A stretch of DNA of 64,000 nt. It comes from Candidatus Latescibacterota bacterium (GTDB lineage: Bacteria; Latescibacterota; UBA2968; UBA8231). Positions 2,711 to 53,521 of this stretch are shown here, one piece after another. Position 1 is the stretch's first letter; each line of letters starts with the position of its first letter. Location: assembly GCA_965200315.1 (NCBI GenBank), contig OZ241362.1, positions 640,001 to 704,000 of the forward strand, read 5' to 3'. The translations under genes were made by a program, and so were the position numbers. The notes beneath the pieces were generated by a model. The model had not been told where the DNA came from. It saw only the letters and a program-made list of their open reading frames with translations, and searched no databases.

Positions 2711-3754
2711 ATGCTAGATCGCGCCGTGCGCATCGGAACGATCGGCTGCGGCACCCAAGCCAACGTCCACTTTGCCGGCATCAAAGCACTCGGCCCCGAC
2801 CAAGCGACCGTTGCCGCCGTCTGCGACCTCGACGACGAGCGCCTCGCCGCCGCTTGCCAGCTCTGGCCTGCAGCCCGCGCCGCCAAAGACTACCGGGCCA
2901 TGCTCGCTGACGGCGACCTCGACTTGGTCATCGTCGCCACCATGCCCAACACGCACGAGGCCATGTCGTTGGCCAGCCTCGACGCCGGGGCCTGCGTACT
3001 GTGCGAAAAGCCCTTTATGATGAATGTCGCCCAAGCCGAAGCCGTCCTCGCCAAAGCCGCAGAGGCTGGGCTACAAGTCCAGCTCGGCACCAACATGCGC
3101 TACATGCCAAGTTCGCGGTATTTGCACGATTTAGTCCAAGGCGGCACCATCGGCGCACCCATATTCGCCAAGGCATGGGGCTGCCACCACGACCCGCCGG
3201 TCTGGGGGCCGCACTACCACCTCGCCACCTCTGGCGGCGGCGTCCTCGCCTCGACCTTGGTCCACACGCTCGACTTGGCACTGTGGATCGGCGGCTCGCC
3301 CAATCCGCTCACCGTCAGCGCGGCGACCCGACGTCTCTTCCCCGGCAAGCGCGGGCCCAAAATCGACGACGCCATCCACGCGCGCTACGACGCCGAAGAC
3401 CTCATCAGCGCCTTGGTGCGCTTTGACAACGGCGCGTTTTACTCCTTGGAGGGCAACTGGTGTAGCGAAAAGACCGACTTCCACAGCTTTGAGCTGACCA
3501 CCACCCGCGCCACAGTGACCGGCGCACCTTTTGCGGTTCAGGTCGACGTCGAAGGCGAGATCGTCGATCAGACGCCCCAACTCGACAGCGACGACTGGTT
3601 CCGCAGCGTCCACACCCAAGACGCCACCCTCATCGCCCAACTCCGCGCCGGCCAGCCTTGGGACATGCAGGACGCCCGCCAGCTCCTCAACCTGCAAAAA
3701 GTCGTCGATGCCTGTTACGAGTCGGCACACACGGACCGCGAGGTGGTGCTCTAG
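2711..3754 (+). CDS. Gfo/Idh/MocA family oxidoreductase
   Basis: IGCG Rossmann motif, VLCEKP, GGGVL; RBS AAAGGA upstream. Confidence 0.9.
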   Translation: MLDRAVRIGTIGCGTQANVHFAGIKALGPDQATVAAVCDLDDERLAAACQLWPAARAAKDYRAMLADGDLDLVIVATMPNTHEAMSLASLDAGACVLCEKPFMMNVAQAEAVLAKAAEAGLQVQLGTNMRYMPSSRYLHDLVQGGTIGAPIFAKAWGCHHDPPVWGPHYHLATSGGGVLASTLVHTLDLALWIGGSPNPLTVSAATRRLFPGKRGPKIDDAIHARYDAEDLISALVRFDNGAFYSLEGNWCSEKTDFHSFELTTTRATVTGAPFAVQVDVEGEIVDQTPQLDSDDWFRSVHTQDATLIAQLRAGQPWDMQDARQLLNLQKVVDACYESAHTDREVVL

Positions 3755-3763
3755 GTGCGTATC
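3745..3763 (+). repeat. Left direct repeat of RM cassette (GGTGCTCTAGGTGCGTATC)
   Basis: 16/19 identical to 5520-5538; spans the TAG of the upstream oxidoreductase. Confidence 0.75.
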
Positions 3764-4591
3764 ATGCTGTCAAAACCTGCATTCGAGGCTGGGCTGAAAA
3801 ACCTAGCAGCCGAATTGACAGCTCACATAAGTATTGAGGATGGCCAATGGTCGATCAAAGGCTTTATCGATACCTACAAGAATGTCTATGCGATCTCGTC
3901 AGATACCAAGCTCATTTCCAAAATTCTGGAGATTCATCTTCTTCCAAAGATACTCTCCTTCGCCAAGCAGAGCGGATTTGACATTGTTCTTGCCCAGCAG
4001 CAGAATTACTATCCAGACATTTCGTTTGTGTCCAAAGATGATGAATCAAGCAAATTTGCAGTAGACCTCAAGACAACTTACCGCAACCCCCAAAAGCCTT
4101 GGCTCTGCAACGGCTTTACGCTTGGTTCGCACGGGAAGTACTTTACTGAACGGACCAGTACCAAGAATATCCAGTTTCCTTATGGATCTTATTCCGGGCA
4201 TTTTTGTCTTGGGATCATTTATGACCGCGCAAAGGATGCATCCCTAGACCAAGCGCGACCTCACTCGATTGACAAATTACAATCTATCGCGTCGGCGATC
4301 TCGAACATTCAGTTTTTTGTAGCCGAGAAATGGAAAATCGCTGGCGACAAGGGCGGCTCCGGGAACACGGCGAACATCGGCAGTATACAGCGAATTGACG
4401 ATCTGCTTGCGGAGAACGGAATGTTTGCCAAGCTCGGTGAAGAATGGTTCGATGACTACTGGATGAACTTTGGAAAAATCACCGTTAAGACACAGGCTGG
4501 CGATACAAAGACAATTACTTCCCTTTTAGATTTTGTCAACTATCGCGGTGGCGACCCTTCCCTAATCGTCGCAAGGAACAACTTAGAATGA
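3764..4591 (+). CDS. Type II restriction endonuclease, EcoRV family
   Basis: [18 protein letters not shown]...VDLKTTY (PD...DxK), [22 protein letters not shown] resemble EcoRV; lower GC; alternative GTG start at 3755. Confidence 0.9.
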
Positions 4592-5529
4592 GCCTTTACC
4601 CAACACTCGTCCCCCCCATAAAGTGCCAAGGCATAAAGACCAAGCTGGTGCCGTGGATTCGATCCGTAATTCCAGGGGACTTTGACGGGAAGTGGATTGA
4701 GCCGTTCATGGGATCTGGCGTAGTCGCCTTTAACATGCGCCCGAGACGAGCACTTTTGTCCGACTCCAATCCGCATTTGATCGACTTCTATCAAGCGATT
4801 GCCGACGGACAGATCACCTCTACTAAGACTCGGCATTTTTTACAAAGAGAAGGAGCCGAACTACTGAGATCCGAAGGCAAGCATTACTACGCAGTCCGGG
4901 ATCGCTTTAATCGACGCCAGAATCCGCTGGACTTTCTGTTTTTGAATCGGGCCGGTTTTAATGGGATGATTCGCTTTAACCGCAAGGGACAGTTCAATGT
5001 TCCGTTTTGCCGTAAGCCCAAGCGGTTTGCCCAAGCATATATCACTAAAATATCCAATCAGGTCCAAGCGGTCGCGGATGCAATTCGCGTTGGAAACTAC
5101 GAGTTCCTATGCCGGGATTTCTCTGCTGTCATTGGCATGGCTCAAGGCGGCGACTTACTGTACTGCGATCCCCCATATATCGGCCGCCACGCGGACTACT
5201 TTAACGGGTGGAACGAAGAGCACGAGCACACATTAGCACATCTGCTATCCTCTGCGCCCTGTCGATTTGTACTTTCGACTTGGCACGGCAATGATTTTCG
5301 GCATAATGCCTTCGTGCACAGTCTTTGGTCGGAATTCCACATTCTGACCCGGGAGCACTTCTATCACATCGGCGCTAAACAGGATAATCGTAACCCCATG
5401 CTCGAAGCCCTAATTACCAATTTTGAGGCCGAATTTTGCGAAGTGCCTAAGTACGCGGTGGAGCAGCTACACTTACTCGAAAGCTCCGCAAAATACAAAG
5501 CAGCCAATCCACAATCGTCGGTGCTTTAG
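4588..5529 (+). CDS. Dam/D12-class N6-adenine DNA methyltransferase (M.EcoRV-like)
   Basis: EPFMGSGVV motif [21 protein letters not shown] motif IV; ATGA overlap with the endonuclease. Confidence 0.93.
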
Positions 5530-5538
5530 GCACGTATC
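5520..5538 (+). repeat. Right direct repeat of RM cassette (GGTGCTTTAGGCACGTATC)
   Basis: Matches 3745-3763 with three transitions; supplies the methylase stop codon. Confidence 0.75.
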
Positions 5539-5658
5539 CCCTCGGCGACGCGGACCGGAGCTAATTCCTCAACGGCAATTTTTGGCTCGGCCGGCTTGCT
5601 CGCCGGGCGATAGCTGCGCTTGGCAATGCGCGACGGGAAGGGGAACTATACGTGCCTA
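5527..5658. mobile_element. MITE-like element with 11-bp terminal inverted repeats
   Basis: TAGGCACGTAT (5527-5537) and ATACGTGCCTA (5648-5658); inner TCCCCT/AGGGGA also pair. Confidence 0.5.
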
Positions 5659-5695
5659 TAGGTGCCTGTATAACATCGTGCAAGGAGAGCTAACC

Positions 5696-6550
5696 ATGGT
5701 AGGAAAGCAGCCCAACGCTTGGACGCCCGCCGAGGCCCACAGCACAGCCGCCCTGCTGCACAGCCTGCCCCGCCCGCTCACCGCCTTGGCCGCCGGCGAC
5801 GTCCCCGCCGTAGTTCTGCGCGGAGCCTACCCGCCCGATCATTGCCGCGGCTTGATGCGCCGCTTTGCCGAGCGGGGCTATTTCGATCCGGCCACCGTAG
5901 GCCAAGCTGCCCAACTCAGCGGCGGCCCCTATCTCGACTTGGGCACCAGCCTCGGCCGGCTTGGAGCCGATCCAGATGCTTTCTTCGCCCACGCCGCCCA
6001 CACCCACGAGTTGTTCGCTACGCTCTTTGCGGGATTTGCCGACCCGGTGCGCACGCTGTACGCCGCCCTGTCCGACTTAGCCGAGGGCAAGGTCGTGCAA
6101 ACGGCGCACGAACCAGATGGGCGGCAGTACGGACCGGCCATCTTCCGCATGTATCACGCCGCCGAAGGGCACCGGCCCCACTACGACTCGGTCGCCAAGC
6201 GTTCCCGCCCCGGCCACGAATACGCAGTCGCCGACTTCCAGCACCAATTCGCCGGGGTGTTGTGCTTGCAGACCGGCAGCGAAACAAGCACCGACGAACC
6301 CTTTATCTACCGCTGCTGGGGCCCCCAGCCCCACGTCGAGGAAGTCCTGCGCCAAGACCGCTTCGCCGAGTACGTGGCCGAGCACCACATCCCCCGCGTC
6401 CAAGTGCGGCTAACGCCGGGCGATCTCTACTTCTTCTGCACCGAAAACATCCACGAAGTCGAGCGCCGCGTACGCCAACGCCGCCGCGTCGTGCTGGCCT
6501 TTTTCTTCGCCATGTCGGCGGACAAACCAGCGATTTTCGTCTGGTCCTAG
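5696..6550 (+). CDS. Putative Fe(II)/2OG-dependent oxygenase
   Basis: RBS AAGGAG; HYD...H facial-triad pattern (PHYDS...PGDLYFF..ENIHEV...RRVV). Confidence 0.65.
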   Translation: MVGKQPNAWTPAEAHSTAALLHSLPRPLTALAAGDVPAVVLRGAYPPDHCRGLMRRFAERGYFDPATVGQAAQLSGGPYLDLGTSLGRLGADPDAFFAHAAHTHELFATLFAGFADPVRTLYAALSDLAEGKVVQTAHEPDGRQYGPAIFRMYHAAEGHRPHYDSVAKRSRPGHEYAVADFQHQFAGVLCLQTGSETSTDEPFIYRCWGPQPHVEEVLRQDRFAEYVAEHHIPRVQVRLTPGDLYFFCTENIHEVERRVRQRRRVVLAFFFAMSADKPAIFVWS

Positions 6551-6663
6551 GGGAACTTGGCGTCGGCCCGATGTTTTGCGGCCTCCCCGCCAATTGACAA
6601 GCTACCCTCAGCCCACAGATGCAAACAGGACACGGCCTAATCCCAGCCTCAAGACAATGCCGA

Positions 6664-6742
6664 TGTCTGACTTTGATACCATTTCAAATACTTGATTCAA
6701 CACTACCCCGACGATTTCGTCCGCTTCACCCTCGGTCGCGCA
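6664..6742 (+). pseudogene. N-terminal remnant of an Rpn/DUF4351-like protein
   Basis: MSDFDTIS[fs]KYLIQHYPDDFVRFTLGR parallels MAEFDSVSKSLVSTYPQGVLEFLLGQ of the intact paralogue starting at 43141. Confidence 0.7.
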
Positions 6743-6829
6743 TACCTCGGGCGTACTCGTATCAGCAGGACCCATCTGTTAGGGACTCTTAGCTTGCGCT
6801 TCCCAACGTATCTAAGCATTGTAAGCATT

Positions 6830-6848
6830 ATACTCAGTTATTGAGTAT
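6830..6848. promoter_or_regulatory. Palindromic operator candidate upstream of Panacea gene
   Basis: ATACTCA-gttat-TGAGTAT perfect 7-bp inverted repeat about 45 bp before the start. Confidence 0.45.
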
Positions 6849-6891
6849 TCATTTGTTCAGTATATAGCCCCCGGCATAGGAGAGAAAGGAC

Positions 6892-7395
6892 ATGGGATAC
6901 TCAGCCAAGGCGATAGCGAATTATTTTTTTTCAAAGGGCCAAAAAGAAAAAAAGCCGATTACGCCTTTGAAGATGCAAAAACTCGTCTATGTTGCCCATG
7001 GATGGCATCTTGGAATAGAGAGCCAACCGCTTATTGATGATGAGTATGTTGAGGCTTGGGATTTTGGTCCTGTTTTTCCTTCTCTCTACCACGAGTTCAA
7101 GCACTTCAAGAATAATCCGGTTGCGGAACCCGCTGAAGAGTTGATAATCGACGAGCATCCATTGGATTTGAAAATTTACACCCCTAAAGTTCAGGAGGAA
7201 GATAAGGAGCTAATGAAGTTCCTCGATCAAATATGGGAAGTTTATAGTAAGTACTCTGGCTCACGACTATCCACTATGAGTCACGGAAAAGGAACGCCTT
7301 GGAGTAATACGCGCCAGAAGGTCGGGAAGATTAGAAATGCCCCCATTGATAATAAAGAGATAGAAGAATTCTATAAAAAAAAACTTAAAAGATAG
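6892..7395 (+). CDS. Panacea-domain (DUF4065/SocA-like) antitoxin
   Basis: AIANYF, TPLKMQKLVY, EAWDFGPV.PSLY, LSTMSH..GTPW; AT-rich. Confidence 0.92.
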   Translation: MGYSAKAIANYFFSKGQKEKKPITPLKMQKLVYVAHGWHLGIESQPLIDDEYVEAWDFGPVFPSLYHEFKHFKNNPVAEPAEELIIDEHPLDLKIYTPKVQEEDKELMKFLDQIWEVYSKYSGSRLSTMSHGKGTPWSNTRQKVGKIRNAPIDNKEIEEFYKKKLKR

Positions 7396-7440
7396 TCAAA
7401 CAGCCTTCGCATTAAGCATTTTTCATAGGGTGAGATGTCA

Positions 7441-7457
7441 TTCAGACAGCCTCTAAG
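7441..7457. mobile_element. Isolated IS5-family terminal repeat (scar)
   Basis: TTCAGACAGCCTC-TAA resembles the ends of the MITE at 34860-34985. Confidence 0.45.
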
Positions 7458-7459
7458 AA

Positions 7460-7859
7460 ATGAATGTACCTACTGATTTAGAGAAACTTCTTGACTCCGA
7501 AGAAAAGGAAGAAGGAGACGATACGGTTGACGATCTTCTTTATGAGAGAATTTTATACCCTACTAATAAGAGAGATCGAGCGGATATACTACTAGGGGGC
7601 TTATCTGATTATATAAAAATGAGACGCCGGTACGGGTACTGGATTGTCTTTCTCAACTTCACTATGGATTATTGCTGTTTTGGCTGTTGTTTTTCTTCAA
7701 GGATTCTCAGTAAAAGGATTTGTTCTTACTGACTCTGTACTTATGCTGCTGCTCGGCACAACAACGGCAAATATAATTGGACTCTTTATTATTGTTGCCA
7801 ACTACCTGTTTCCCAAAAATGCGCGAGACTTGCTTGATTCTTCCGAAAGTGGCGACTGA
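7460..7859 (+). pseudogene. Two-TM membrane protein, candidate Panacea-paired toxin, frameshifted
   Basis: ORFs 7460-7732 and 7644-7859 join near 7648-7652 into an acidic N-terminus, MRRRYGYWI, TM1, then LTDSVLMLLLGTTTANIIGLFIIVANYLFP. Confidence 0.7.
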
Positions 7860-7989
7860 TAATCCTACCTAATCCTATCCGTACCACGGCCCGTCACTCC
7901 TACGCATCACTCTGATGAAGCGTCCTTGCGTCTTTGCGTTAAAGCCCTCCCCAATAACGGTGTACCTAGCCAAGGCCCCTGCTTCTGCG

Positions 7990-8350
7990 CTAGTGCCGCG
8001 TCGTCAGTAGCGGTTCACATGTTCGCCAACTGCTCAACCGCATTTGCAGCGTCGGGAAGCCCTAGCAGGTCGGCCATTAGGCGTCGATCTATCTCGCGGC
8101 GAACCGGGTCGGTAGTTAGGTTGGCGAAACCGGCTAGGGGTTTGTCGGCCAAATCAGCGAAAACTTGCTTGCCGACCCCTAGCTGGTCGTCCGTTAGATG
8201 GGTTGGGTCTAGAATCCGCAAGGTGCATGCCAGTTCGTGCGGCAGACTGCTGCGGCCAAGATAGGGCCGATTCGCGTGAACGATTCGCAGCAACAAACCA
8301 AGGGTGCTGTTGAGCCATAAGCACAGCACCTCTTTGCCGCCGACCGGCCC
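7990..8350 (-). pseudogene. C-terminal remnant of a fused (type IIG-like) restriction-modification protein
   Basis: LCLWLNSTLGLLL...LRILD...L.DDQL...DPVRREIDRRL..LLGLP is typical of N6-MTase/REase fusion C-termini; no N-terminus. Confidence 0.55.
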
Positions 8351-8353
8351 TGC

Positions 8354-8742
8354 GCCCAGTGCCACGCCTCAACCTTGGCGCCGCTCAAAAACGGCGCGTT
8401 TCTCGCCGCGTGGTTTGCTGGCACCCGCGAGGGCCACGCGGATGTCGGGGTCTGGGGAGCCGAGCGCCGACACGGGCGTTGGTAGGCCCCGCGCTGCTTG
8501 GCCAAGGTGCGGGACTGCGCCCACTGGAATCCAGTGCTTCACGCCAGCGGCGACGGCGGCGTCTATCTGTTCTTCAAGGTGGGCGAGCGGATCGCCGCTT
8601 GGACTTAGAAACCGCCGGCGGCGAGTACTCCTATCCGGCGATTATCCCTACCCAAGTCGGCATGGCCATAACCTATACTTGGCAGCGCGAGCGGATCGCG
8701 TTCTGGCACGGGTCGGTAGAACAAGTGCCTAATACCGGCTAG
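8354..8742 (+). pseudogene. Sialidase/BNR-repeat protein remnant with internal deletion
   Basis: QCHASTL...AAWFAGTREGHADV...(TAG)...HWNPVL...LFFKVG joined directly to GEYSYPAII...TYTWQRERI. Confidence 0.85.
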
Positions 8743-9803
8743 CCCGCCGGCTGCATGTCCTCCCCGCGCAGCAGGAAGGCGCGGATGTCGTAGCGGCCCG
8801 GGCGCTCTACCGGCAGCTCCCCGGCCTCGATCATCACCTCCAGCGGCGAAGCCATCGTCCGCAAGGGCAGTGCGGTCACCTCGTGCCGCCGCGCCGACTC
8901 GTATGTGGCCATGATGATCTCCACTGCCGCCCGGCCGTTTTCCGCTTGGCCGCGATGCTCGACCTTGCCTTCGATCCACTCCACGATCTCGCGCTGCTGC
9001 CCAACGCTGGGGTCCTCACCTGCGCCCGGCCGCTCTTCCCAAGTGCCGGTCTGGCTGTTGAGCAGCCGCACCTTGCTCTCGTCGAGTTCCATTATGCCCT
9101 CCGAGCCGTAGAAAACCCCGCCCTGGTAGTTCGGACCGGCCAGCTCCTGCAAAAGCTGGCCGATGGCCCCGTTGTCGAACTGCACGATACACAGGCTGCG
9201 ATCCTCAATGGGGATGTCGCGCTCAAAGCGCTCGGTCTTGCGCTCGATATTGCCCATCACCCACACGGCCTGCGGATCGCCCATCACGTAGCGCATCATG
9301 TCCAACAGGTGCGAGCAATCGTTGAGCAAACCCTGTCCGCCGCGCGCGTTGACCTGCCGCACCTCGCCGATGGCCCCTGCTGCCACCAGTTCCTTGGCCA
9401 AAGTCCACGCCGGATTGAAGCGACGCTGATGGGCAATGGCCAGCTTGACGCGGTTGCGCTGGGCCGCGATGAGCATGTCGTCGCAATCGCCCAGACTAGT
9501 CGCCATAGGCTTTTCGCACAGCACGGCTTTGGGCTTGCGCGCACAAGCGGCAATCGTCATCGGCGCGTGCAACTTGTGCCAAGTGCAAATCGAGACGATG
9601 TCGAGCGCCTCCGCGTCGAGCATCTGGCGGAAATCCTCGTAGCGTTGAGCGATCCCATGCCGCTGGCCGAACTCCTCGCGGACCTCAGCTACCGGGTCGG
9701 CCAGCGCCACCACCTCGACTTGGTCCACCTCGTTCCAGCCTTGTATATGGTAGCCGGCGATGCTGCCACAGCCGATAATGCCCACTCGATACTTTTCTGC
9801 CAT
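8739..9803 (-). CDS. Gfo/Idh/MocA family oxidoreductase
   Basis: GIIGCGSIA, VLCEKPMA, HQRRF. Confidence 0.92.
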   Translation of the reverse strand: MAEKYRVGIIGCGSIAGYHIQGWNEVDQVEVVALADPVAEVREEFGQRHGIAQRYEDFRQMLDAEALDIVSICTWHKLHAPMTIAACARKPKAVLCEKPMATSLGDCDDMLIAAQRNRVKLAIAHQRRFNPAWTLAKELVAAGAIGEVRQVNARGGQGLLNDCSHLLDMMRYVMGDPQAVWVMGNIERKTERFERDIPIEDRSLCIVQFDNGAIGQLLQELAGPNYQGGVFYGSEGIMELDESKVRLLNSQTGTWEERPGAGEDPSVGQQREIVEWIEGKVEHRGQAENGRAAVEIIMATYESARRHEVTALPLRTMASPLEVMIEAGELPVERPGRYDIRAFLLRGEDMQPAG

Positions 9804-9824
9804 GTCGTCTTCCTTTGTTGATGG

Positions 9825-26813: not shown

Positions 26814-26814
26814 T

Positions 26815-27855: not shown

Positions 27856-28031
27856 GACTCGTCCATCTGCCGCCGCGACGTCGCAACGTGCAACAGCGTA
27901 CTGAAGGCCGCGACAAAAAACCCATACTTCAGCCCCATCCCCCAAAACGGTTGCAGCATCAACCCCACGCCGGCGACCATACCCACGCGAGCGCCGCGAT
28001 CCAACCAGCCAATCACCGCTTGATCGTCCAT
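27852..28031 (-). CDS. Small two-TM membrane protein of the ABC operon
   Basis: MDDQAVIGWLDRGARVGMVAGVGLMLQPFW...; ATGA overlap with the ATPase. Confidence 0.65.
   Translation of the reverse strand: MDDQAVIGWLDRGARVGMVAGVGLMLQPFWGMGLKYGFFVAAFSTLLHVATSRRQMDES
28013..28029 (-). repeat. Direct repeat bounding TA cassette (GGACGATCAAGCGGTGA on minus strand)
   Basis: 16/17 identical to 29109-29125. Confidence 0.85.
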
Positions 28032-28065
28032 TCTCCGCCTCTTGGCATCGCTCAGGTTGATTTGT

Positions 28066-28461
28066 TCATCGTCTCTCGCCGGAGCAGAGCCAGTCCTCGT
28101 AGAATCTCTTGACTCGCTTTGGCGTACGCGGAGACGATAAGAGGCCATCTTGGACTCTTCGCAGCACGTCAGGGGTACAGGGTTGGCGAAGCTCGGCTAT
28201 ACGCCAACTCACTGCTTCGTTCAAATAGTGAATTTCAGGGATAAGAGCATGGTCGTAGGAGATCACGGATGCGTACCGCACCCATGGGCGATCGCCCGGG
28301 CTCAGTACTACGGTACTATCTTTGTAGAATCGCTTGGTGGATACCGCCCCAATGATAGTCTGCGGCGGCTCACCCACTGGGTCTGTCACCAAGATCCAGA
28401 GATGTGGAGTCTCAAAGTTTGGACTCGGGAGCACCAGAGTCTCGCCAGCGCGACTAAACAT
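28066..28461 (-). CDS. Putative toxin, PemK/MazF-like fold, paired with Panacea
   Basis: GETLVL...HLWILVTD...AVST...DSTVVLSPGD.PWV...SVISY; overlaps the antitoxin stop. Confidence 0.65.
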   Translation of the reverse strand: MFSRAGETLVLPSPNFETPHLWILVTDPVGEPPQTIIGAVSTKRFYKDSTVVLSPGDRPWVRYASVISYDHALIPEIHYLNEAVSWRIAELRQPCTPDVLRRVQDGLLSSPRTPKRVKRFYEDWLCSGERR

Positions 28462-29020
28462 CGCTGTTGGGAATCACCATCTGCTCTGCTAAGGAGAACG
28501 ATTCCAGCTCTTCGGTAATCTCCCTGATTTCAGCCTCCGTCTTACCGACAGCTTCGAGGATATCGCGATAGTGAATCGCGCACGAAGACCCTTCAGGGTT
28601 CTGCCACTCGCTGAAATTGTCGTGGCAGTAGTCTCGCAGTTGCCATTGATCCCAACGGCCATACGCTGAGTAGATCTCGTCAATCAGACCGGTCTCCGCT
28701 TCGGAGAGATCGTCGTCCTGCGGATTCGCAATCAAGGAGACTTCATACGCGCTCGGAGGGCTGATGAACCTGCTCCAGGACCCTAGGCAATTGGGTTCAT
28801 CTCCCTCGTTGATCCGATCGAGGGTAAAGCTGAGCACCGGACCATGGGGCATCGATACGTACCTGTCGTAAGTAATAGGATGGCCCCAGCGGCTGAGAGC
28901 GGTTCGGTCCATGGCGTAGAGCAACTTGATAAGTTTCATATAGTTCATCGCTCCACCTGCATGCTGCAGTAAGCGAGCGGCGGCCTGAACCGTCTTGTCT
29001 TCGCGGTAACGGGGTATCAC
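28454..29020 (-). CDS. Panacea-domain (DUF4065) antitoxin
   Basis: MNYMKLIKLLY..DR, ITYDRYVSMPHGPVLS, LRDYCH...EWQNP.GSS. Confidence 0.9.
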   Translation of the reverse strand: MIPRYREDKTVQAAARLLQHAGGAMNYMKLIKLLYAMDRTALSRWGHPITYDRYVSMPHGPVLSFTLDRINEGDEPNCLGSWSRFISPPSAYEVSLIANPQDDDLSEAETGLIDEIYSAYGRWDQWQLRDYCHDNFSEWQNPEGSSCAIHYRDILEAVGKTEAEIREITEELESFSLAEQMVIPNSDV

Positions 29021-29108: not shown

Positions 29109-29125
29109 TCATCGCTTGATCGTCC
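29109..29125 (-). repeat. Direct repeat equal to permease 3' end (GGACGATCAAGCGATGA on minus strand)
   Basis: Last 17 nt of the permease including its stop; duplicated at 28013-28029. Confidence 0.85.
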
Positions 29126-29972
29126 CAAAGGTGACGCCGCGCAGCAGATGCTTGCGCACCAACACCGTGAACGCGATGATCGGCGCGGCAAAAATCAGCA
29201 TCCCCGCGCTGATCTGCGCCCACGGCAAACCCGACACATTGCCCTGCAAACCAGCGAAGTAAACCGGCACTGTAACGGCCTTTTGGTTGTTGAGCGTCAT
29301 GGCAAACCCGTACTCGTTCCACGCGGAGATCAGGCAAAACACCGCAGTTACTGCCATCCCGGGCACGGCCCGCGGCAGAACGACCAAGCGAAAGGCTTGG
29401 AAGCGAGTATAGCCAGCCACCAGCGCGGCCTCTTCGTACGCGGTGGGTATTTCGTCGATAAAGCCCTTCATCAGCCACACGGCCAGCGACATATTGAACG
29501 CCGTGTACAGCAGCACCAATCCTAAATGGCTGTTCTGGAGATCGAATTCGCGGTACATCATCAACACCGGCACCACCAAGGCGAGGGGCGGCAAAAAGCG
29601 CGTCGAGAGGATAAAAAACAGCCAGTCGCGCCCCCCGGGGATGGCAAAGCGGCTAAAGCCATAGGCCGCGCCGGTGCCGATCAGCACCGAGCACAAGGTG
29701 CTGAGCAGGCCAATGACCAAGCTGTTGCCCAAGTAGTGGAAAAAGGCGTGCTCCCCGCCGGCGTACACCGCGGCCAATTGGCGATAGCCGTCGAGATTGG
29801 CGCGGAAGTAGCTCCCGTCGGCCGCGACCTCCTCGGCCCAAGTGGGCGCGAACTTGGGATGCACGGCAATGCTGTCGTCCCGCGTCTTAAACGAGGTCAG
29901 CAAGAGCCATACAAGCGGCAGCATGGCCGCGCAAAAGTAGCCCCCGACAAAGGCGATGCGCAGCGCCTTCAC
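29109..29972 (-). CDS. Carbohydrate ABC transporter permease
   Basis: IPTAYEEAALVAG; ends LRGVTFGTIKR. Confidence 0.92.
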   Translation of the reverse strand: MKALRIAFVGGYFCAAMLPLVWLLLTSFKTRDDSIAVHPKFAPTWAEEVAADGSYFRANLDGYRQLAAVYAGGEHAFFHYLGNSLVIGLLSTLCSVLIGTGAAYGFSRFAIPGGRDWLFFILSTRFLPPLALVVPVLMMYREFDLQNSHLGLVLLYTAFNMSLAVWLMKGFIDEIPTAYEEAALVAGYTRFQAFRLVVLPRAVPGMAVTAVFCLISAWNEYGFAMTLNNQKAVTVPVYFAGLQGNVSGLPWAQISAGMLIFAAPIIAFTVLVRKHLLRGVTFGTIKR

Positions 29973-30865
29973 TGCGCCCCGGCCTCCTCGCGCCGCTGCA
30001 CTGAACTTATGTAGCGCACAAACACACTGGCCAGCGCGAGCACCAGCACCAACACTACGTACGAATACGCCGCACCCAACCCTATCTTGCCGTCGCGGAA
30101 CACCACCTGATAGAGCAGCGCACTCACCGTTTGCGTGGCCGGGTCGTTGGGGCCGGTGATGGCCATGACCAAATCGAACTGCTTGAGCGCGTCCGTGGCC
30201 CTCAGCAATACGGCCAGCCCCAAAAGCGGCGCACACAAAGGCAGGGTAATCCGGCGGAAGACCTTCCACCGCGAGGCCCGGTCAATGGCCGCGGCCTCGT
30301 ACAAGTAACCGGGGATGGCGTTGAGTGCGGCCAGTGCGATCAGCATCATAAACGGCGTCCACATCCACACGTCGACCAGCAGAATCGACAGCAGCTTGAG
30401 GTCGGGGTCTGTAATCCACTGGGGTTGGCCCAGCCCCAGTGCGCCGAGGCATTGGTTGAGGATGCCGTAGTGCCCGTTGAGTATCAGCTTCCAAAAGAGC
30501 GCGATCACGGCCGGCGGCAACATCATCGGCACCAACAGTGCCGTCAGTGCAAACGCCCGGCCGCTGAAGCGATCTTTGAGCGCCAGTGCCAAGGCAAAGC
30601 CCAAGACTAACTCCACGGCCACGGCCACGCAGACAAAGAGCGCGGTGGTCCGCAGCGCGGCCCCGTATTTGGCAAACTTAAACGCCACGGCGTAGTTGAA
30701 TCCCCCCACGAACTTCCACGCCCCGCCGACCAAGTCCACATTGGTGAAGCTGAGCGCGATGCTGTACAGCAGTGGGAAGACATTGATGCCGATGAGCAAA
30801 AGGAGGGCCGGCGCCACGAACGCATACTGAGTCCAATCGCGGCACCGGCCCATACTACCCCTCAC
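29969..30865 (-). CDS. Carbohydrate ABC transporter permease
   Basis: DVWMWTPF, LYEAAAIDRAS. Confidence 0.92.
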   Translation of the reverse strand: MRGSMGRCRDWTQYAFVAPALLLLIGINVFPLLYSIALSFTNVDLVGGAWKFVGGFNYAVAFKFAKYGAALRTTALFVCVAVAVELVLGFALALALKDRFSGRAFALTALLVPMMLPPAVIALFWKLILNGHYGILNQCLGALGLGQPQWITDPDLKLLSILLVDVWMWTPFMMLIALAALNAIPGYLYEAAAIDRASRWKVFRRITLPLCAPLLGLAVLLRATDALKQFDLVMAITGPNDPATQTVSALLYQVVFRDGKIGLGAAYSYVVLVLVLALASVFVRYISSVQRREEAGAQ

Positions 30866-32178: not shown

Positions 32179-32345
32179 GCGCTTTCCTCCTCTTAGAAGC
32201 GTTTTTTTCGCGTCGGCACAAGCGCACGTACCGCAAGGTCGCCGATGTATGCGCCCGCTCAATATCCGACTGATTGAACCGCCGCGCAATGGCCGCCTTA
32301 GTGCCCTGATACCGAGTCGGTTTTATGCAGTAGAATGGTTTCGTT

Positions 32346-32360
32346 TAACGCTATGCGTTA
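32346..32360. promoter_or_regulatory. Probable HigA operator
   Basis: TAACGC-tat-GCGTTA perfect palindrome 16 bp upstream of higB. Confidence 0.65.
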
Positions 32361-32376
32361 TATATTTTGGTGTAAC

Positions 32377-32658
32377 ATGAGACGGTCTTTTAGAGGTAGA
32401 GAAACCGAACGGATATTCCAACGCACTCGATCCCGAAAGCTACCCAGCGATATCCAACAAATCGCCATTCGCAAGCTCCGCATGCTCAATCGGTCAACTA
32501 CACTAGCTCATCTTCGGGTGCCACCGGCCAATCGCCTCGAAAAACTCCGGGGCGATCGGGCGGGCCAGTACAGTATTCAAATCAATGACCAGTGGCGCAT
32601 CTGTTTTACGTGGCGAAATGGCGATGCTTGCGACGTTGGGATCGTAGATTATCACTAG
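32377..32658 (+). CDS. higB: RelE/ParE-family toxin HigB
   Basis: LRVPPANRLEKLRGDRAGQYSI.INDQWRICF.W...IVDYH. Confidence 0.93.
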   Translation: MRRSFRGRETERIFQRTRSRKLPSDIQQIAIRKLRMLNRSTTLAHLRVPPANRLEKLRGDRAGQYSIQINDQWRICFTWRNGDACDVGIVDYH

Positions 32659-32668
32659 GAAAAGGCTT

Positions 32669-32974
32669 ATGAGTGCTCAGAAATTAGCTCCTGTTCATTT
32701 AGGGGAAGTCTTGTTGGAAGAGTTCCTCAAGCCGATGCAGCTCAGCCAAAACCGCCTCGCACTTGCCATCGGCGTGCCGCCCCGACGCATCAACGAAATC
32801 GTCTTGGGAAAACGCGGCATTACGGCTGATACCGCGCTGCGGCTGGCGCGTTACTTCAGTATGTCGCCCCAATTCTGGATGGGCCGGCAGATGGATTATG
32901 CGCTAGATATAGCCGAAGACGAACTAGCGGACCGCTTGGAGCGAGAAGTGCAACCGCGTCTGGAGACGGGATAA
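32669..32974 (+). CDS. higA: HigA/VapI family antitoxin
   Basis: PVHLGEVLLEEFL, RINEIV.GKR.ITADTALRL, FWM..Q. Confidence 0.93.
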   Translation: MSAQKLAPVHLGEVLLEEFLKPMQLSQNRLALAIGVPPRRINEIVLGKRGITADTALRLARYFSMSPQFWMGRQMDYALDIAEDELADRLEREVQPRLETG

Positions 32975-32995
32975 AAGGCATTGCGAGGCATGGGC

Positions 32996-33823
32996 CTACT
33001 CCGCCCCGGCAAAACTCCACACCTGCAGAGCCGTGCGATGGAAGAGCCACGCCTTGTCGTCGTCGGTGAGAAAATCGACGTGGTCGCGGAACATCTCCAA
33101 AGCCGGTCCGTACCCCACCCCTTTCAGGACGCCGGGGAAATTGGTTCCCCACATCAACCGCTGTGGCCCAAAAGCGTCGTAGATGCGGCGGAAGGTGGGA
33201 AACGTATCCGCGTGCGGAAAGGGCAACGCGGACTTGTGAGCCTGCGGCGTGCATTTCACGTACACCTTGGGAAAACAAGCTAGGTCGAGTACGTGGCTCA
33301 GCAGCGGAAAGGGCGGTTCCTCATTGGTTGGCGCTCCGCCGATGTGGTCCAGCACCACCGGCACCTCGGGAAAGCGACCGATGATCGGCGCCAAGTGGGG
33401 CAGATTGGCCGCCGGGCCGTGGACGATAAAACAAGTGCCTAGTTCCTCCGACCGCCGCCACAGCCGATCCTGATCTGGGGCGGCCCATTCCGCGGGGTGG
33501 TCGAGCCGCGACGAGTGAATGCGCAAACCGCCAAAACCGCCCTCGCGCAACTTTTCCAGCCGGTCGGGCGCGTCCGGGGCCTTGGGATCGACCAAGCCAA
33601 TCGCGGCAAAGCGGCCCGGAAAGCGGCGTAGGCAGTCGGCCACGTACCGGTTGTCGAACAAATAGTGAATCGGCTGCACAATGACCGCTTTATCGACCCC
33701 GACCTCGGCCATGGTCTGATTGAGCAATTCCACGGAGCCACCGCCCACCTGAGTCCGACCCTCGGCAAAGGGATAGCGCTCCGCGTCGTCGCTCCACACG
33801 TGCAGATGCGTGTCAATGATCAT
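32996..33823 (-). CDS. Amidohydrolase_2 family protein (sugar-lactonase-like)
   Basis: DTHLH, VLDHIG, FGPQRLMWGTNFP. Confidence 0.88.
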   Translation of the reverse strand: MIIDTHLHVWSDDAERYPFAEGRTQVGGGSVELLNQTMAEVGVDKAVIVQPIHYLFDNRYVADCLRRFPGRFAAIGLVDPKAPDAPDRLEKLREGGFGGLRIHSSRLDHPAEWAAPDQDRLWRRSEELGTCFIVHGPAANLPHLAPIIGRFPEVPVVLDHIGGAPTNEEPPFPLLSHVLDLACFPKVYVKCTPQAHKSALPFPHADTFPTFRRIYDAFGPQRLMWGTNFPGVLKGVGYGPALEMFRDHVDFLTDDDKAWLFHRTALQVWSFAGAE

Positions 33824-49765: not shown

Positions 49766-49965
49766 ATCTTCTCGAAGCGAGAAGGCAAAGGAACGTGACA
49801 GACGACAGAAGGTGGTGCATGACGACCTCCTTTGAAGGATATAAAGATCAGGATAAAGGGGCTCCGGGACAGTATCCGCAGCAACATCCCGCCCTCAGTT
49901 GACGAGTTAAAACTCAGATGCTACTATCCGTCTTTCGTCTCACTTCCCTCAAAAGAAAGCACACT

Positions 49966-51636
49966 ATGACCGACTCCACCCCCATCAGCAAGCACATCAC
50001 CCAAGGCCCATCCCGGGCCGGAGCCCGCGCCATGTACCGGGCCGCCGGCTTCGACGCCGAGGCCCTGCGCCAACCCCTCATCGGCATTGCCAACACCTGG
50101 ACCGAGCTAGGCCCTTGCAATTTTGGCCTGCGCGGCCTAGCCGAGCACGTCAAGGCCGGCATCCGCCGTGCCGGCGGCACCCCCCTCGAATTCAATACAG
50201 TGGTGATCTCCGACGGCATCACCATGGGCACCGAAGGCATGAAGACCTCGCTCATTTCGCGCGAAGTCATCGCCGACTCCATGGAACTGGTGGTGCGCGG
50301 CCATATGCTCGACGGCTTTGTCGCCCTCACCGGCTGCGACAAGACCACCCCAGGGGCCATTATGGCCATGTGCCGCTTGGACATCCCTTCGGTGCTGCTC
50401 TACGGCGGCTCGATTATGCCCGGTCGCCACGACCAAGCCGATATCACCATCCAAGACGTGTATGAAGCCATCGGTGCCCACGCCACCGGCCGCATCGACG
50501 ACGATCAATTGCGCCTCATCGAAGAAAACGCCTGCCCCGGGGCTGGGTCCTGCGGCGGTCAATTCACCGCCAATACCATGGCCACCGCGGCCGAGATTCT
50601 CGGCGTGGCCCTCATGGGCTCGGGCTCGGTGCCGGCCACCGACCCGCGCAAGGAAGCCGTCGGCACCCAAGTCGGGAGCCTAGCCGTCGAATTGGTGCGC
50701 CAAAATCGCAAACCCTCGCAGATCATCACCCGTCCCGCCCTCGACAACGCCATCCGCTCCATTGCCACCACCGGCGGCTCGACCAACGGCGTGCTGCATT
50801 TTCTGGCCATCGCCCGGGAGGCTGGATTGGAACTGGACATTGAGGACTTCCAGACCTTGAGCAGTTCTACCCCACTCATGGTCGACCTCAAGCCCGGCGG
50901 CCGCTTTGTCGCCCCCGACTTGGACAAAGCCGGCGGCATCTCCTTAGTCGCCCGCCGCCTCAAAGAAGCCGGCCTGCTGCACGAGGACGCCCTCACGGTA
51001 TCGGGCCGCACCATCGGCCAAGAGGCCGACCGCGCCGTGGAAACCCCCGGCCAACAGGTCGTGGTGCCGGTCGATAAACCGCTAAAAAAATCGGGAGGTC
51101 TAGTCGTGCTCAAGGGCAATCTCGCCCCCGAAGGCGCGGTGGTGAAATTGGCCGGCCACGAACGCGCCCAGCATCAAGGCCCGGCCCGCGTCTTCGACAG
51201 CGAGGACGAAGTCATGCCGGCCATTGAGCAGGGCCACATCCAGCCCGGCGATGTGGTGGTCATCCGCTACGAAGGCCCCAAGGGCGGACCGGGCATGCGC
51301 GAGATGCTAGCCGTCACCGGTGCCATTGTGGGGGCCGGTCTGGGCGACTTTGTGGCCCTAGTAACCGATGGCCGCTTTTCGGGTGCTACTCGCGGCCTGA
51401 TGATCGGCCACGCCGCGCCCGAAGCCGCAGTGGGCGGCCCCTTGGCCGTCCTGCGCGACGGCGATACCATCACCATCGACACCGCGGCCGGCCGGTTGGA
51501 CGTAGCCCTAGACGCAGCCGAGCTGCAGGCCCGCCTAGCCGTCTGGGAGGCCCCACCGCCGCGCTACACCTCCGGCGTGATGGCCAAATACGCCCGCTCG
51601 GTGTCGTCGGCAGCCCAAGGAGCAGTGACTGGCTAA
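49966..51636 (+). CDS. ilvD: Dihydroxy-acid dehydratase
   Basis: PCN, SDGITMG, CDKT.PG, GGSTN, RYEGPKGGPGMREM, TDGRFSG. Confidence 0.96.
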   Translation: MTDSTPISKHITQGPSRAGARAMYRAAGFDAEALRQPLIGIANTWTELGPCNFGLRGLAEHVKAGIRRAGGTPLEFNTVVISDGITMGTEGMKTSLISREVIADSMELVVRGHMLDGFVALTGCDKTTPGAIMAMCRLDIPSVLLYGGSIMPGRHDQADITIQDVYEAIGAHATGRIDDDQLRLIEENACPGAGSCGGQFTANTMATAAEILGVALMGSGSVPATDPRKEAVGTQVGSLAVELVRQNRKPSQIITRPALDNAIRSIATTGGSTNGVLHFLAIAREAGLELDIEDFQTLSSSTPLMVDLKPGGRFVAPDLDKAGGISLVARRLKEAGLLHEDALTVSGRTIGQEADRAVETPGQQVVVPVDKPLKKSGGLVVLKGNLAPEGAVVKLAGHERAQHQGPARVFDSEDEVMPAIEQGHIQPGDVVVIRYEGPKGGPGMREMLAVTGAIVGAGLGDFVALVTDGRFSGATRGLMIGHAAPEAAVGGPLAVLRDGDTITIDTAAGRLDVALDAAELQARLAVWEAPPPRYTSGVMAKYARSVSSAAQGAVTG

Positions 51637-51682
51637 TGTTCAGAGTAATGTCGGGAAAGCCGGGCGATAAGAGAGGTGCGCC

Positions 51683-53254
51683 GTGAATAAACGCAAACTC
51701 CCCATCGGCCTTCAGACGTTCCGCAAAGTGCGCGAGGGGGGCTGCTACTATGTCGATAAGACCGCCTACATCCGCCGCCTGCTCGACGAGGGGGCACACT
51801 ACTTCCTGTCGCGTCCTCGTCGGTTTGGCAAGAGCCTGTTCTTGGACACGCTCAAGGAGTTGTTCGAGGGCAACGAGCCGTTGTTCGAGGGCTTGCACAT
51901 CCACAACCGCTGGGACTGGTCGGTGCGCCATCCGGTAGTGCGACTGGACTTTGGCGGCGGCAACTTCAAAGAGCCGGACGTTCTCCACACAGAGGTGATG
52001 GCACAATTGGACGAGATTGAGGAAGAAACAGGCGTTGAAAGCCGGTATGACATGGCATCGACCCGCTTCCGTGGTCTGCTCCGACGCCTGCATCGCCAAA
52101 CTGGCCAGCCGGTGACCGTGCTGATCGACGAATACGACAAGCCGATCTTGGACGCGCTGGAACGGCCCGACATCGCCCGCGCCAACCGCGACTTCCTGCA
52201 CGGGCTGTATTCCGTCATCAAAGCCAGCGACGCGCACGTGCGCTTCACGTTCATCACCGGCGTGAGTACGTTTTCCAAGGTCAGCCTGTTTTCCGGGCTG
52301 AACAGCCTCAAAGACATCACGCTCGACCCGCGCTATTCGGCGATCTGCGGCTATACCGAGTCAGACTTGGACGCGGTGTTCGCGCCGGAGTTGCCCGGCT
52401 TAGATCGCGCCCAGATCCGCGACTGGTACAACGGCTATAGCTGGGCTTCGACAGGCTCAGCCGCAACGCTGGGCGCCGAGCAAGTGTACAACCCCTTCGA
52501 CATCCTGCTGCTGTTCGACAGCGGCCTGTTCAAAGCCTACTGGTTTGAGACCGGTACGCCGACATTTCTGGTCGAGACGCTGTGCCAACGCCACGTGCGC
52601 TCCTTGGACTTGGACGGCATGGTCGCCAGCGACGAGTTGCTCTCGACGTTTGATGTCGATGACATCGCCACCGAAGCCCTGCTGTTCCAGACCGGCTACC
52701 TGACCATCATCGACGCCAAGGATCGCGGCGGGAGGTGGTTCTATCAGTTGAGCTATCCCAACCGCGAGGTGCGCCAGAGCCTCAACGAGAGCCTACTGAG
52801 CTACTTAGTGCAAGACAGGTCGCGGCAGACGGCCAACAGTGGACGGCTCTACGACCTGCTGGAAGCCAATGACTTCGACGGGTTGCAGACGCTGTTCCAC
52901 GCTTTTTTCGCCAGCATTCCCTACGAGTGGTACACCAACAACGACATCGCGCAGTACGAGGGCTATTACGCCAGCGTGTTCTACTCGTATTTCGCGTCGT
53001 TGGGCTTGGATGTTCGGGTGGAAGACAGCAGCAGCCACGGCCGCACGGACATGGCGGTGTTGTTCAACAGCAACGTCTATTTGTTCGAGTTCAAGGTGGT
53101 GGAACAGGCGTCGGCCGGGTCGGCGCTGGCGCAGTTGCAGGCGCGGGGATATGCGGCTAAGTATCGGGCGTTGGAGCAGCCGATCTATCTGATCGGCGTG
53201 GAGTTTAGCAAGGGCGAGCGCAACCTAGCGGCGTTTGACGTGGAAAAGGCGTGA
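51683..53254 (+). CDS. AAA-ATPase-like protein with C-terminal PD-(D/E)XK nuclease (DUF1703 type)
   Basis: YYVDKT, RPRRFGKS, IDEYDKP, YNGY, GRTD...FEFK, Q...RGY. Confidence 0.92.
   Translation: MNKRKLPIGLQTFRKVREGGCYYVDKTAYIRRLLDEGAHYFLSRPRRFGKSLFLDTLKELFEGNEPLFEGLHIHNRWDWSVRHPVVRLDFGGGNFKEPDVLHTEVMAQLDEIEEETGVESRYDMASTRFRGLLRRLHRQTGQPVTVLIDEYDKPILDALERPDIARANRDFLHGLYSVIKASDAHVRFTFITGVSTFSKVSLFSGLNSLKDITLDPRYSAICGYTESDLDAVFAPELPGLDRAQIRDWYNGYSWASTGSAATLGAEQVYNPFDILLLFDSGLFKAYWFETGTPTFLVETLCQRHVRSLDLDGMVASDELLSTFDVDDIATEALLFQTGYLTIIDAKDRGGRWFYQLSYPNREVRQSLNESLLSYLVQDRSRQTANSGRLYDLLEANDFDGLQTLFHAFFASIPYEWYTNNDIAQYEGYYASVFYSYFASLGLDVRVEDSSSHGRTDMAVLFNSNVYLFEFKVVEQASAGSALAQLQARGYAAKYRALEQPIYLIGVEFSKGERNLAAFDVEKA
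52444..52467 (+). repeat. 24-bp REP-like insertion inside CDS
   Basis: GGCTTCGACAGGCTCAGCCGCAAC adds ASTGSAAT between YNGYSW and LG. Confidence 0.7.
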
Positions 53255-53289
53255 GCAACATTGAAAATCAAATTCCCCCTTTCCTCGTA

Positions 53290-53430
53290 GATCATGTGAT
53301 CCTCTCATTTGGTCGTCACCCCGTATAATAGCCTCCATCGCCACCTCCCGTACCGCAGCCTCAATGTCGGCCCCAGAAAAGCCATCGGACAGATGCACTA
53401 GTTCCTTATATCGCCGAATTTGATTCCGCC
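53290..53430 (-). pseudogene. AAA+ ATPase lid-domain remnant
   Basis: ELVHLSDGFSGADIEAAVRE. Confidence 0.65.
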
Positions 53431-53521
53431 CAATATTGTGCGTATGGCTCAATATGTTCGAGATAATGAGTCGTCTCCACCGGGAGCACGGGCCGCTCGC
53501 CCGCCAACCGCATCGGGCAAA

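Follow-up and report, generated by a model that had tools for sequence, protein, structure and literature searches.

Introduction

How defence genes arrive at chromosomal sites without a mobile element is an open question. In E. coli and Pseudomonas, integrase-free defence hot spots hold variable defence content between conserved genes and exchange it by flank homology; to our knowledge, descriptions of these hot spots do not stress flanking target duplications. The result lists of literature searches on defence islands and hot spots with direct repeats held nothing on such an architecture besides pipolins. For restriction-modification (RM) systems, the criteria set out by Furuta et al. (2010) for an "insertion with long target duplication" are homologues of both the restriction (R) and the modification (M) gene, a unit of <20 kb without mobility genes, a duplication of >30 bp and a single-copy empty site; their Discussion suggests restriction-type DNA breakage as the driver, and the pattern has had no mechanism since its description. 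C-terminal (3′-end) and sequential displacement by homology-facilitated illegitimate recombination, which leaves orphaned gene ends, is described by Kirchberger et al. (2017; PMC5361080), who cite Jackson et al. (2009) on rhs. Among insertion sequences (IS), IS1630 of Mycoplasma is listed with target duplications of 19-26 bp (PMC2853133). Here we analyze small cassettes carrying an EcoRV-like RM system, a Panacea toxin-antitoxin (TA) module and an AAA/PD-(D/E)XK gene in a stretch of the genome of Candidatus Latescibacterota bacterium (GCA_965200315.1), and ask how they came to lie beside intact host genes.

This genome (G000) is a single contig of 5.36 Mb with 59% G+C. The stretch comprises 64,000 nucleotides (G000:C1:640001-704000, contig OZ241362.1; hereafter the window), and all coordinates refer to it unless a genome position is given. 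The span under study, 3745-53473, runs from the first base of the left RM repeat to the last base of the proposed right AAA repeat. Related genomes are designated by further G numbers.

Results

Cassettes without mobility genes

Five cassettes in the window, carrying the EcoRV-like RM genes, two Panacea genes (one per cassette), a HigB-like/helix-turn-helix (HTH) pair and an AAA/PDDEXK_9 gene, all coincide with dips in G+C content. Pfam confirms the three modules named in a preliminary description of this DNA (EcoRV-like RM, Panacea TA and AAA/PD-(D/E)XK), and each is absent from its own site in congeners. Also borne out is the proposal that the cassettes lack an integrase or transposase: neither was found among 59 window open reading frames (ORFs; 18 + 41) scanned with Pfam, and none of the genome's four tyrosine recombinases lies inside the window. 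tRNA and Rfam scans of the window returned no tRNA, tmRNA or Rfam family. The insertions thus come without their own recombinase, and the host genes on either side are intact.

The Panacea cassette and its 17-bp target duplication

The second Panacea-domain antitoxin gene of the window (28454..29020, minus strand; PF13274, E = 2.9e-21) lies next to a 131-aa ORF (28066..28461, minus strand), the presumed toxin partner, and the pair sits within an operon between two copies of a 17-bp direct repeat. The proximal copy (29109..29125, minus strand; TCATCGCTTGATCGTCC) holds the TGA stop of an ABC permease gene (29109-30269, minus strand), which it closes on the coding strand with ...AAG CGA TGA. The distal copy (28013..28029, minus strand; TCACCGCTTGATCGTCC) preserves a GTG from which the next ORF in the operon can start. 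The two copies agree at 16 of 17 positions and form the sole such pair genome-wide at ≤1 mismatch.

Window 26900-30300 was searched against 24 congeners for empty sites. The matches to the two flanks overlap by exactly 17 bp in 15 of them (G001, G003, G007, G008, G009, G010, G011, G012, G014, G016, G019, G020, G021, G022 and G023) and by 10 bp in three others (G017, G018 and G024); two congeners, G002 and G013, carry a Panacea cassette, and the remaining four gave no match. Empty sites read GGACGATCAAGCGATGA, after which the next ORF follows directly, with a stop/start overlap of ATGA. Because these sites hold the 17 bp once, the repeat is a true target duplication.

The cassette of G002 and G013 is 88% identical to that of G000 and occupies the same junction, without a second 17-bp copy. 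In a tree of one 2.6-kb neighboring locus these two genomes are sisters within a well-supported nine-genome clade, and G000 falls outside it; the remaining seven genomes of the clade have an empty TA site.

The Panacea domain is clear in both Panacea cassettes of the window, and neither partner ORF matches any family, including PemK/MazF. For the 131-aa ORF there was no match in Pfam (E ≤ 0.5), NCBIfam or PDB sequences (E ≤ 1), so the "PemK-like" label it had initially been given is unsupported.

Repeat-bounded cassettes across the genome

We compared the genome with itself in 60-kb windows, filtering for matches of 30-350 bp with ≥92% identity that lie 0.4-15 kb apart. From 565 direct local matches, 55 direct pairs passed these filters, against 5 inverted pairs; a stricter cut (≥40 bp, ≥95% identity) left 23 direct and 1 inverted. 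Eight of the 55 fall within one ORF, and seven come from two arrays of periodic 37-bp repeats. At 16 loci, the stop codon of a flanking gene lies inside one repeat copy. Cassettes whose repeats are 99-100% identical include those at genome 2498187-2500664, 1182415-1183349, 3050803-3061422 and 5085272-5087213.

The arrays of 37-bp repeats (genome 592775-601239 and 129075-147681; period ~73-77 bp), which inflate the direct-repeat count, are probably CRISPR arrays.

Twenty-seven repeat-bearing regions were chosen by hand. Their 197 ORFs, scanned with Pfam, include no integrase and a single transposase, of the IS1595 type. The inside has a G+C fraction at least 0.04 below the flanks at 17 of 23 hand-picked loci, and no motif shared by 23 junction pairs was seen by eye. 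Duplication lengths are ~0-5, 17 and 19 bp in the window; in the rest of the genome they go up to 321 bp.

The cargo, assessed with Pfam and by comparing 34 proteins (7 of them window ORFs) with PADLOC, is unrelated between loci and mostly concerned with defence. It includes BrnT/BrnA between 194-bp repeats (99% identical), a 12.9-kb DrmMI/DrmD/DruE-like (DISARM/Druantia-like) island between 223-bp repeats, a 10.5-kb LeoBC-like island with three dynamins between 66-bp repeats (100% identical), and a second AAA/PDDEXK_9 gene between 50-bp repeats (100% identical). Further loci hold four methyltransferase or RM units, two Fic genes, ATPases of the AbiLi/PDC-M38A, HEC-01A, PDC-S01 and PDC-S27 types, a DndH/mad7/SspF-like trio, and several ORF sets of no family.

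Six of these cassettes were tested for empty sites against five complete congeners (G001, G005, G007, G010 and G012), and precise single-copy sites are found here as well. At the 320-bp duplication around a cassette of two ORFs (446 and 153 aa), the flank matches overlap by 316-320 bp in all five. The 50-bp duplication around the AAA/PDDEXK_9 gene is single-copy in three, with other DNA within those 50 bp in the other two. The 66-bp duplication of the dynamin island is single-copy in two, and one relative holds a 78-80% identical island. For the PDC-S01 cassette, G001 has a 64-bp gap and G012 has remnants; the BrnTA cassette is also present in G010 and partly in G005, and the HEC-01A site in relatives is occupied by a 70%-identical gene.

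The two-ORF cassette (genome 2498507-2500343; L123 1821-3657) also bears on what is inserted. Its ORFs have no match in Pfam, PADLOC or NCBIfam and may represent an undescribed defence or selfish pair, with relatives in G001 and G008 and more distant ones in G019. In G008 the cassette occupies the same locus with the same right joint, and the left repeat copy has shrunk to 28 + 22 bp. The G001 cassette, at another locus, keeps a 22-bp stretch (18 of 22 identical) that is native to the G000-type target and sits in a mosaic of pieces from other loci. This copy, together with the fragment of an AAA+ gene in the AAA insert of the window (see below), shows that the inserts lack defined ends.

The restriction-modification cassette

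The host gene upstream of the RM cassette encodes a GFO/IDH/MocA oxidoreductase (2711..3754, plus strand; PF01408/PF22725), with ~90% identical orthologues in 18 of 19 congeners. The left copy of a 19-bp repeat (3745..3763, plus strand; GGTGCTCTAGGTGCGTATC) spans its TAG stop. There follow genes for an EcoRV-like restriction endonuclease (REase; 3764..4591, plus strand; PF09233, E = 1.2e-113, 244/244 profile positions; PADLOC REase_II) and, overlapping it, a D12-class N6-adenine DNA methyltransferase (MTase; 4588..5529, plus strand; PF02086, E = 1.5e-48), whose final codons and stop lie within the right repeat copy (5520..5538, plus strand; GGTGCTTTAGGCACGTATC). With a predicted EcoRV-fold REase beside a predicted N6-adenine MTase, these genes fit a type II RM system of the EcoRV family. 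At the REase gene the G+C fraction is 0.40-0.55, against 0.64 in the flanks.

In 13 of the 19 congeners, the gap between the oxidoreductase and the downstream WelO5-like gene is 49-96 bp. Five have ~1.55 kb there, taken up by an EPSP-synthase-like gene (in four by annotation, in G020 by size only), and in G009 the oxidoreductase is missing. RM genes occur at this site in none of the 19. Because the congeners' sites are short or differently filled, and none has RM genes, the RM genes are a genuine insertion. Related EcoRV-like R-M operons occur in many phyla (64-75% protein identity; R-then-M order in 79 of 80 loci). Among those 80 loci no near-identical donor was found, the best having 75% protein identity, and the cassette ends are therefore not comparable.

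The case for the 19-bp repeat as a target duplication is more mixed. Its copies are identical at 16 of 19 positions, lie exactly at both boundaries with the TAG stops of oxidoreductase and MTase in register, and are each other's sole match at ≤3 mismatches in the genome. Their score was equalled in 3 of 300 shuffles and at 36 of 1500 random gene ends (100x350 search space). The C-terminal residues of the MTase are unconserved among 79 homologues, in most of which M homology ends before residue 307 of 313, and the ORF reads into the right copy and terminates at the stop there, as if fused to the duplicated end of a host gene; in three further cassettes (genome 3239561, 3885360 and 1878723) a cassette gene likewise ends at a stop within a repeat copy. 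The empty sites of the 13 congeners read ...GTCGTTCTATAACTAACACGG..., resemble the repeat in the last codons only, and lack the 9 bases present after the stop in each copy. Moreover, the insert substitutes for ~45 bp of spacer, including a promoter-like TTGACA...TACAAC. On these comparisons, a 19-bp target duplication is plausible but short of proof.

The EPSP-synthase-like gene (447 aa; split in G013) that fills this spacer in G002, G010, G013 and G014 (L015, L016, L018 and L019) is either ancestral and lost elsewhere, or a separate insertion.

The insert downstream of ilvD

The third module is part of a 1.88-kb insert (51638..53521, plus strand) between ilvD, the dihydroxy-acid dehydratase gene (49918..51636, plus strand; PF00920/PF24877), and a convergent gene of the enolase superfamily (MR_MLE; 53522..54787, minus strand). 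Pfam identifies in it an AAA-ATPase_like/PDDEXK_9 gene (51683-53254) and, on the opposite strand, 75 aa of a foreign AAA+ gene (AAA_lid_3; 53225-53452, minus strand), a fragment unique in the genome and missing beside the closest copies of the ATPase gene. The distance from ilvD to MR_MLE is ≤245 bp in 17 congeners, with the two matches overlapping by 6 bp in G019, and in none of the 17 does the AAA/PDDEXK_9 gene occupy the site. The insert is thus real. Its proposed repeat (51631-51652 and 53446-53473) is unsupported, as it can be aligned only with gaps and is equalled by 93 of 300 shuffles. A MAFFT alignment had hinted at an orphaned ilvD tail in the right flank; this was rejected, with local alignments to the relatives' spacer no better than shuffles (74/200 and 126/200; two of seven relatives scored).

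AAA-ATPase_like/PDDEXK_9 genes are numerous in this genus. G000 has seven full copies and one fragment, with 69-80% protein identity, and each of 19 close congeners has 9-18 DNA matches, flank matches included. Similarity between copies is confined to the ORF, with nothing common outside it and no conserved ends across the seven copies. The gene has no PADLOC match.

Directly after the ilvD stop, G022 (L145) and G013 (L149) have an element of ~200 bp with inverted ends (GTTACGCAC ... GTGCGTAAC) and AGCTAAT on both sides, which is absent from the window. It looks like a miniature inverted-repeat transposable element (MITE) with a short target duplication.

The preliminary description had placed a direct repeat around two of the modules and probably the third, and looked to relatives for precise single-copy empty sites. 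Both expectations hold for the 17-bp TA repeat; the 19-bp RM repeat is only moderately above chance and its empty sites are not clear, and the AAA repeat stands at chance level with no supported empty site. One could accordingly ask whether the RM and AAA repeats are chance similarities, the cassettes having come in by ordinary spacer replacement through homologous recombination in conserved flanks. The random-gene-end score of the RM repeat, the shuffle scores of the AAA repeat and its right flank, the 9 missing bases and the replaced rather than purely enlarged spacer all favor such a reading, and cassettes more alike than their flanks do exist: between G000 and G008, the two-ORF cassette is 93.7% identical and its flanks 88-89%. 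The position, register and genomic uniqueness of the RM copies and their shuffle score (3 of 300) speak against it, as do the MTase ending and its three parallels. In addition, the spacer evolves too fast for the absence of 9 bases to count for much, since at 90% overall identity they would not be expected to persist. We consider chance similarity with spacer replacement unlikely.

Other insertions and features of the window

Downstream of the RM cassette, a ~130-nt inverted repeat (5528..5657, plus strand; AGGCACGTATCCCC ... GGGGAACTATACGTGCCT) lies in the spacer between the MTase stop and the WelO5-like gene. Its DNA fold of -38.1 kcal/mol (z = -2.27) was equalled by 3 of 200 shuffles, and no further copy was found in the genome or in the relatives' loci. 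As a candidate attC/Xer-like site it was rejected, the TAGGYRCGTAT words being not above chance in the genome and the spacer being without relatives.

The WelO5-like Fe/2OG enzyme gene (5696..6550, plus strand; PF22814) borders an insertion hot spot. The spacer between it and a convergent oxidoreductase gene (6552 to 8749) is a direct joint in G007 and holds 2-14 kb of varying content in other genomes. Extra WelO5-like 3′ ends of 35-166 bp occur in 8 of 19 congeners, and extra 3′ ends of the convergent oxidoreductase gene in several more. G022 has three WelO5-like 3′-end copies in series (78-93% identity); in G019, a 13.6-kb BREX island lies between 284-bp repeats that are 99.3% identical and cover both convergent gene ends. 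Serial orphaned WelO5-like ends are absent from the window itself. The divergent spacer at 2593-2727, single-copy in the window, is duplicated (100-158 bp) around a chorismate-mutase/thioredoxin/HTH insert in eight congeners. No recombinase was found among 93 ORFs of the relatives' variable segments, and the 349 ORFs scanned with Pfam in all (59 window, 197 repeat-region and 93 relatives' ORFs) contain no integrase fragment.

In the window, this hot spot is filled by a low-G+C segment unique to G000 (6741..8324, plus strand) that carries the first Panacea (SocA-like) antitoxin gene (6892-7395) and a small membrane ORF (7460-7859), assigned with Pfam/NCBIfam. The segment is not in the relatives' loci, where PQQ-dehydrogenase, FAD/BNR and other genes are found. 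We rejected this cassette (6892-7859) as the repeat-bounded TA module: no repeat flanks it (296 of 300 shuffles were as good), and it belongs to a substitution-type hot spot.

The small membrane ORF is spread over two frames (7460-7732 and 7644-7859), which would fuse to one ORF of ~133 aa without one base at 7654, as in the contigs of run X2; X3 and X6 have the window state. Window 8325-8743 is a remnant of an FAD-oxidoreductase/BNR gene, which in relatives encodes 740 aa. Relatives hold ~520 bp more between window 8602 and 8593, where two matches overlap by 10 bp.

The remaining cassette (32308..33002, plus strand; G+C fraction 0.527), which by Pfam carries a HigB-like toxin and HTH antitoxin (HigBA; 32335-32974), is an insertion without a long repeat, with a duplication of ~0-5 bp. 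HigBA is absent from this site in G011, G014, G020, G001 and G023, and copies of 82-85% identity lie at other loci in G012, G021, G009 and G020.

Adjoining ABC ATPase genes (25785-26861 and 26815-27945) share stretches of 71-78% identity, 1045 bp apart (window 26172-27454). They are ordinary tandem paralogues.

Public sequencing runs that hold the window carry the label sponge metagenome; window 2600-9000 is present in seven runs from two studies. In Logan contigs of four runs (window 1500-10500), the RM and first Panacea cassettes are present in all at 98-100% identity. Neither an empty allele nor a back-joint was found in these contigs, which cannot show rare forms, and the result is therefore uninformative on circles or excision. 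The sole skip joint, from 3741 to 4547, is in a single contig and has only 30 letters on one side.

Discussion

The cassettes analyzed here are insertions, several with precise single-copy empty sites in congeners; they lack a recombinase, their repeats vary in length, and some inserts bring passenger fragments with them. With moderate confidence, we favor the interpretation that they are pieces of foreign DNA integrated without a dedicated recombinase by illegitimate recombination, possibly aided by homology on one side. Recombinase-free illegitimate integration followed by selection fits these data better than a site-specific capture system, because lengths are variable, cargo is unrelated, passenger fragments are present, and neither a recombinase nor a shared site was found.

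The joining mechanism and the role of selection we infer as follows. The two joints with the chromosome would form at independent positions. Where they overlap, the intervening stretch would come to flank the insert twice, giving a target duplication, here of 17 to 321 bp; where they do not, the target would be left with a substitution, a small deletion or just the clean insert. Selection would then retain events in which both neighbors remain functional, which may be why duplications often carry last codons with a stop, or the stop/start overlap of an operon. The repeats would thereafter be passive scars that decay, suffer partial deletion, may be homogenized by gene conversion, and can permit precise loss.

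Several observations weigh against this interpretation. The organism is uncultured, and we reason from end products throughout, no joint having been observed as it formed. A Ku homologue was not found in the genome, so classical end joining is not available. BrnTA and HEC-01A, two of the six cassettes tested, have no clean empty site. Several repeats are 99-100% identical though the cassette is common to other species (BrnTA), which requires gene conversion or recent re-insertion. In some diverged repeats the mismatches gather at one end and the rest is identical (genome 895955-897994, 2066628-2068242, 3885360-3886107 and 5157724-5162294), a pattern not predicted by random decay. Finally, the presence of the Panacea cassette at one junction in two lineages needs at least two changes on the one-locus tree (one change sufficed in 0 of 200 bootstrap trees), the junctions differ between the lineages (17 bp duplicated in G000, not duplicated in G002/G013), and reuse of one site is not predicted by random illegitimate insertion. 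Such reuse would fit a site preference; the tree itself is compatible with two gains, with transfer through homologous flanks, or with a single ancient gain and many precise losses.

The preliminary description had instead suggested small circles that integrate Campbell-style, through short (micro)homology or a trans-acting host recombinase. The repeats would then be attL/attR-like. We regard this as unlikely. Flanking repeats around a single-copy empty site are indeed the expected outcome of a single crossover. The 284-bp repeat of G019 spans the contiguous target of two convergent gene ends, for which one crossover is simpler than one-sided homology; the Panacea junction was occupied in two separate lineages, and four tyrosine recombinases are encoded elsewhere in the genome. 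However, no pointer to circles or to a trans-acting site-specific enzyme was seen: duplications run from ~0-5 bp (HigBA) to 321 bp, the repeats of 17 bp and more differ in sequence at every site with no common core at the 23 junction pairs, and other cassettes of the same window have no repeat at all. Inserts with partial genes and bits of earlier flanks have undefined ends, and a circle would need to contain a target copy before it ever integrated, which only moves the question back.

A broader proposal, which we think quite unlikely, is that gene ends and operon junctions are where this lineage acquires foreign DNA, irrespective of cargo, through widely staggered breaks or template switching at replication forks. 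The duplication would spare the neighbors and later permit precise removal, making defence cassettes reversible plug-ins. Its footprints would be the pristine empty sites of 15 congeners and the repeated use, by homologous Panacea cassettes of two lineages, of the same inter-cistronic ATGA.

It is very improbable that the cargo moves itself, whether by restriction-enzyme breaks in a virus-like RM life cycle or with the PD-(D/E)XK/AAA protein as a transposase. The Discussion of Furuta et al. does tie long target duplication to a common property of RM systems such as DNA breakage. The abundance of AAA/PDDEXK_9 genes in G000 and its congeners, one of them within a perfect 50-bp duplication, points in the same direction. 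Yet the same architecture surrounds cargo without a Pfam-recognized nuclease domain (the Panacea TA, the dynamin island, Fic, and the 446- and 153-aa ORFs); BrnT, going by its Pfam name, we take to be a ribonuclease toxin. The divergence of the AAA/PDDEXK copies, which share nothing outside the ORF, gives no sign of recent transposition and no defined ends, and the mostly non-RM cargo speaks against restriction-enzyme breakage as the driver.

Also very improbable is a derivation of the cassettes from integrase-borne islands or IS composites whose mobility genes were lost: the IS1595 transposase lies in one repeat-bounded RM cassette and the ~200-bp MITE at the ilvD stop in G022 and G013, but no integrase fragment was found in the ORFs scanned, the window has no tRNA or tmRNA, inserts of 0.7-1.1 kb are too small to have housed an integrase, and empty sites are precise.

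G000 and its congeners supply many clean single-copy empty-site cases, and their mostly non-RM cargo argues that the process belongs to the host or to DNA uptake rather than to restriction enzymes. The duplication would also explain how a cassette can land without damage inside an operon junction or within a gene's last codons.

Several known systems resemble these cassettes in part. As in integrase-free defence hot spots, variable defence content lies between conserved flanking genes. Like integron cassettes, the units are small, promoter-poor and captured side by side without a recombinase of their own; unlike them, they have no integron integrase nearby and no attC-like common site, occur in mixed orientations at many scattered sites, and include a hairpin (5528-5657) that is unique. 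The 17-19 bp duplications are in the range of IS1630-type transposons. In contrast to IS elements and transposons, there is no transposase, no terminal inverted repeats were seen when junctions were read by eye, and the duplication is not fixed but runs from 0 to 321 bp; in contrast to integrase-borne islands, the window has neither an integrase nor a tRNA or tmRNA.

The resemblance to 3′-end displacement lies in the serial orphaned ends 3′ of a conserved gene, each before an older cassette and without an integrase, as at the WelO5-like gene in 8 of 19 congeners. In the displacement cases set out by Kirchberger et al., toxin/immunity modules are fused to the conserved gene, whereas the conserved genes here are unrelated metabolic genes. 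Furthermore, 17 bp at an operon junction and 284 bp across convergent ends are more simply target duplications than donor-derived gene ends.

With the long target duplications of Furuta et al., the cassettes share small units without a mobility gene, direct repeats that correspond to a single copy in a relative, and cargo that includes RM systems. Measured against their criteria, the window RM cassette (3764-5529) has both R and M, and the TA and AAA cassettes do not. The window inserts are 1.1-1.9 kb without integrase or transposase, well under the size limit. Duplications in the window (17 and 19 bp) fall short of 30 bp; the rest of the genome has duplications of 30-321 bp, and the congeners have some of 35-284 bp. 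For the 17-bp TA repeat, 15 of the 24 congeners have a single-copy empty site. The mechanism had at first been put forward as undescribed; the architecture itself has already been published (Furuta et al. 2010; PMC5361080). What is new here is the cargo, which unlike that of the Furuta cases is mostly non-RM (TA, BREX, DISARM/Druantia-like, dynamin, Fic, ATPases and ORFs of no known family), and the density, with 16 loci in one 5.4-Mb genome at which a repeat copy covers a flanking stop codon.

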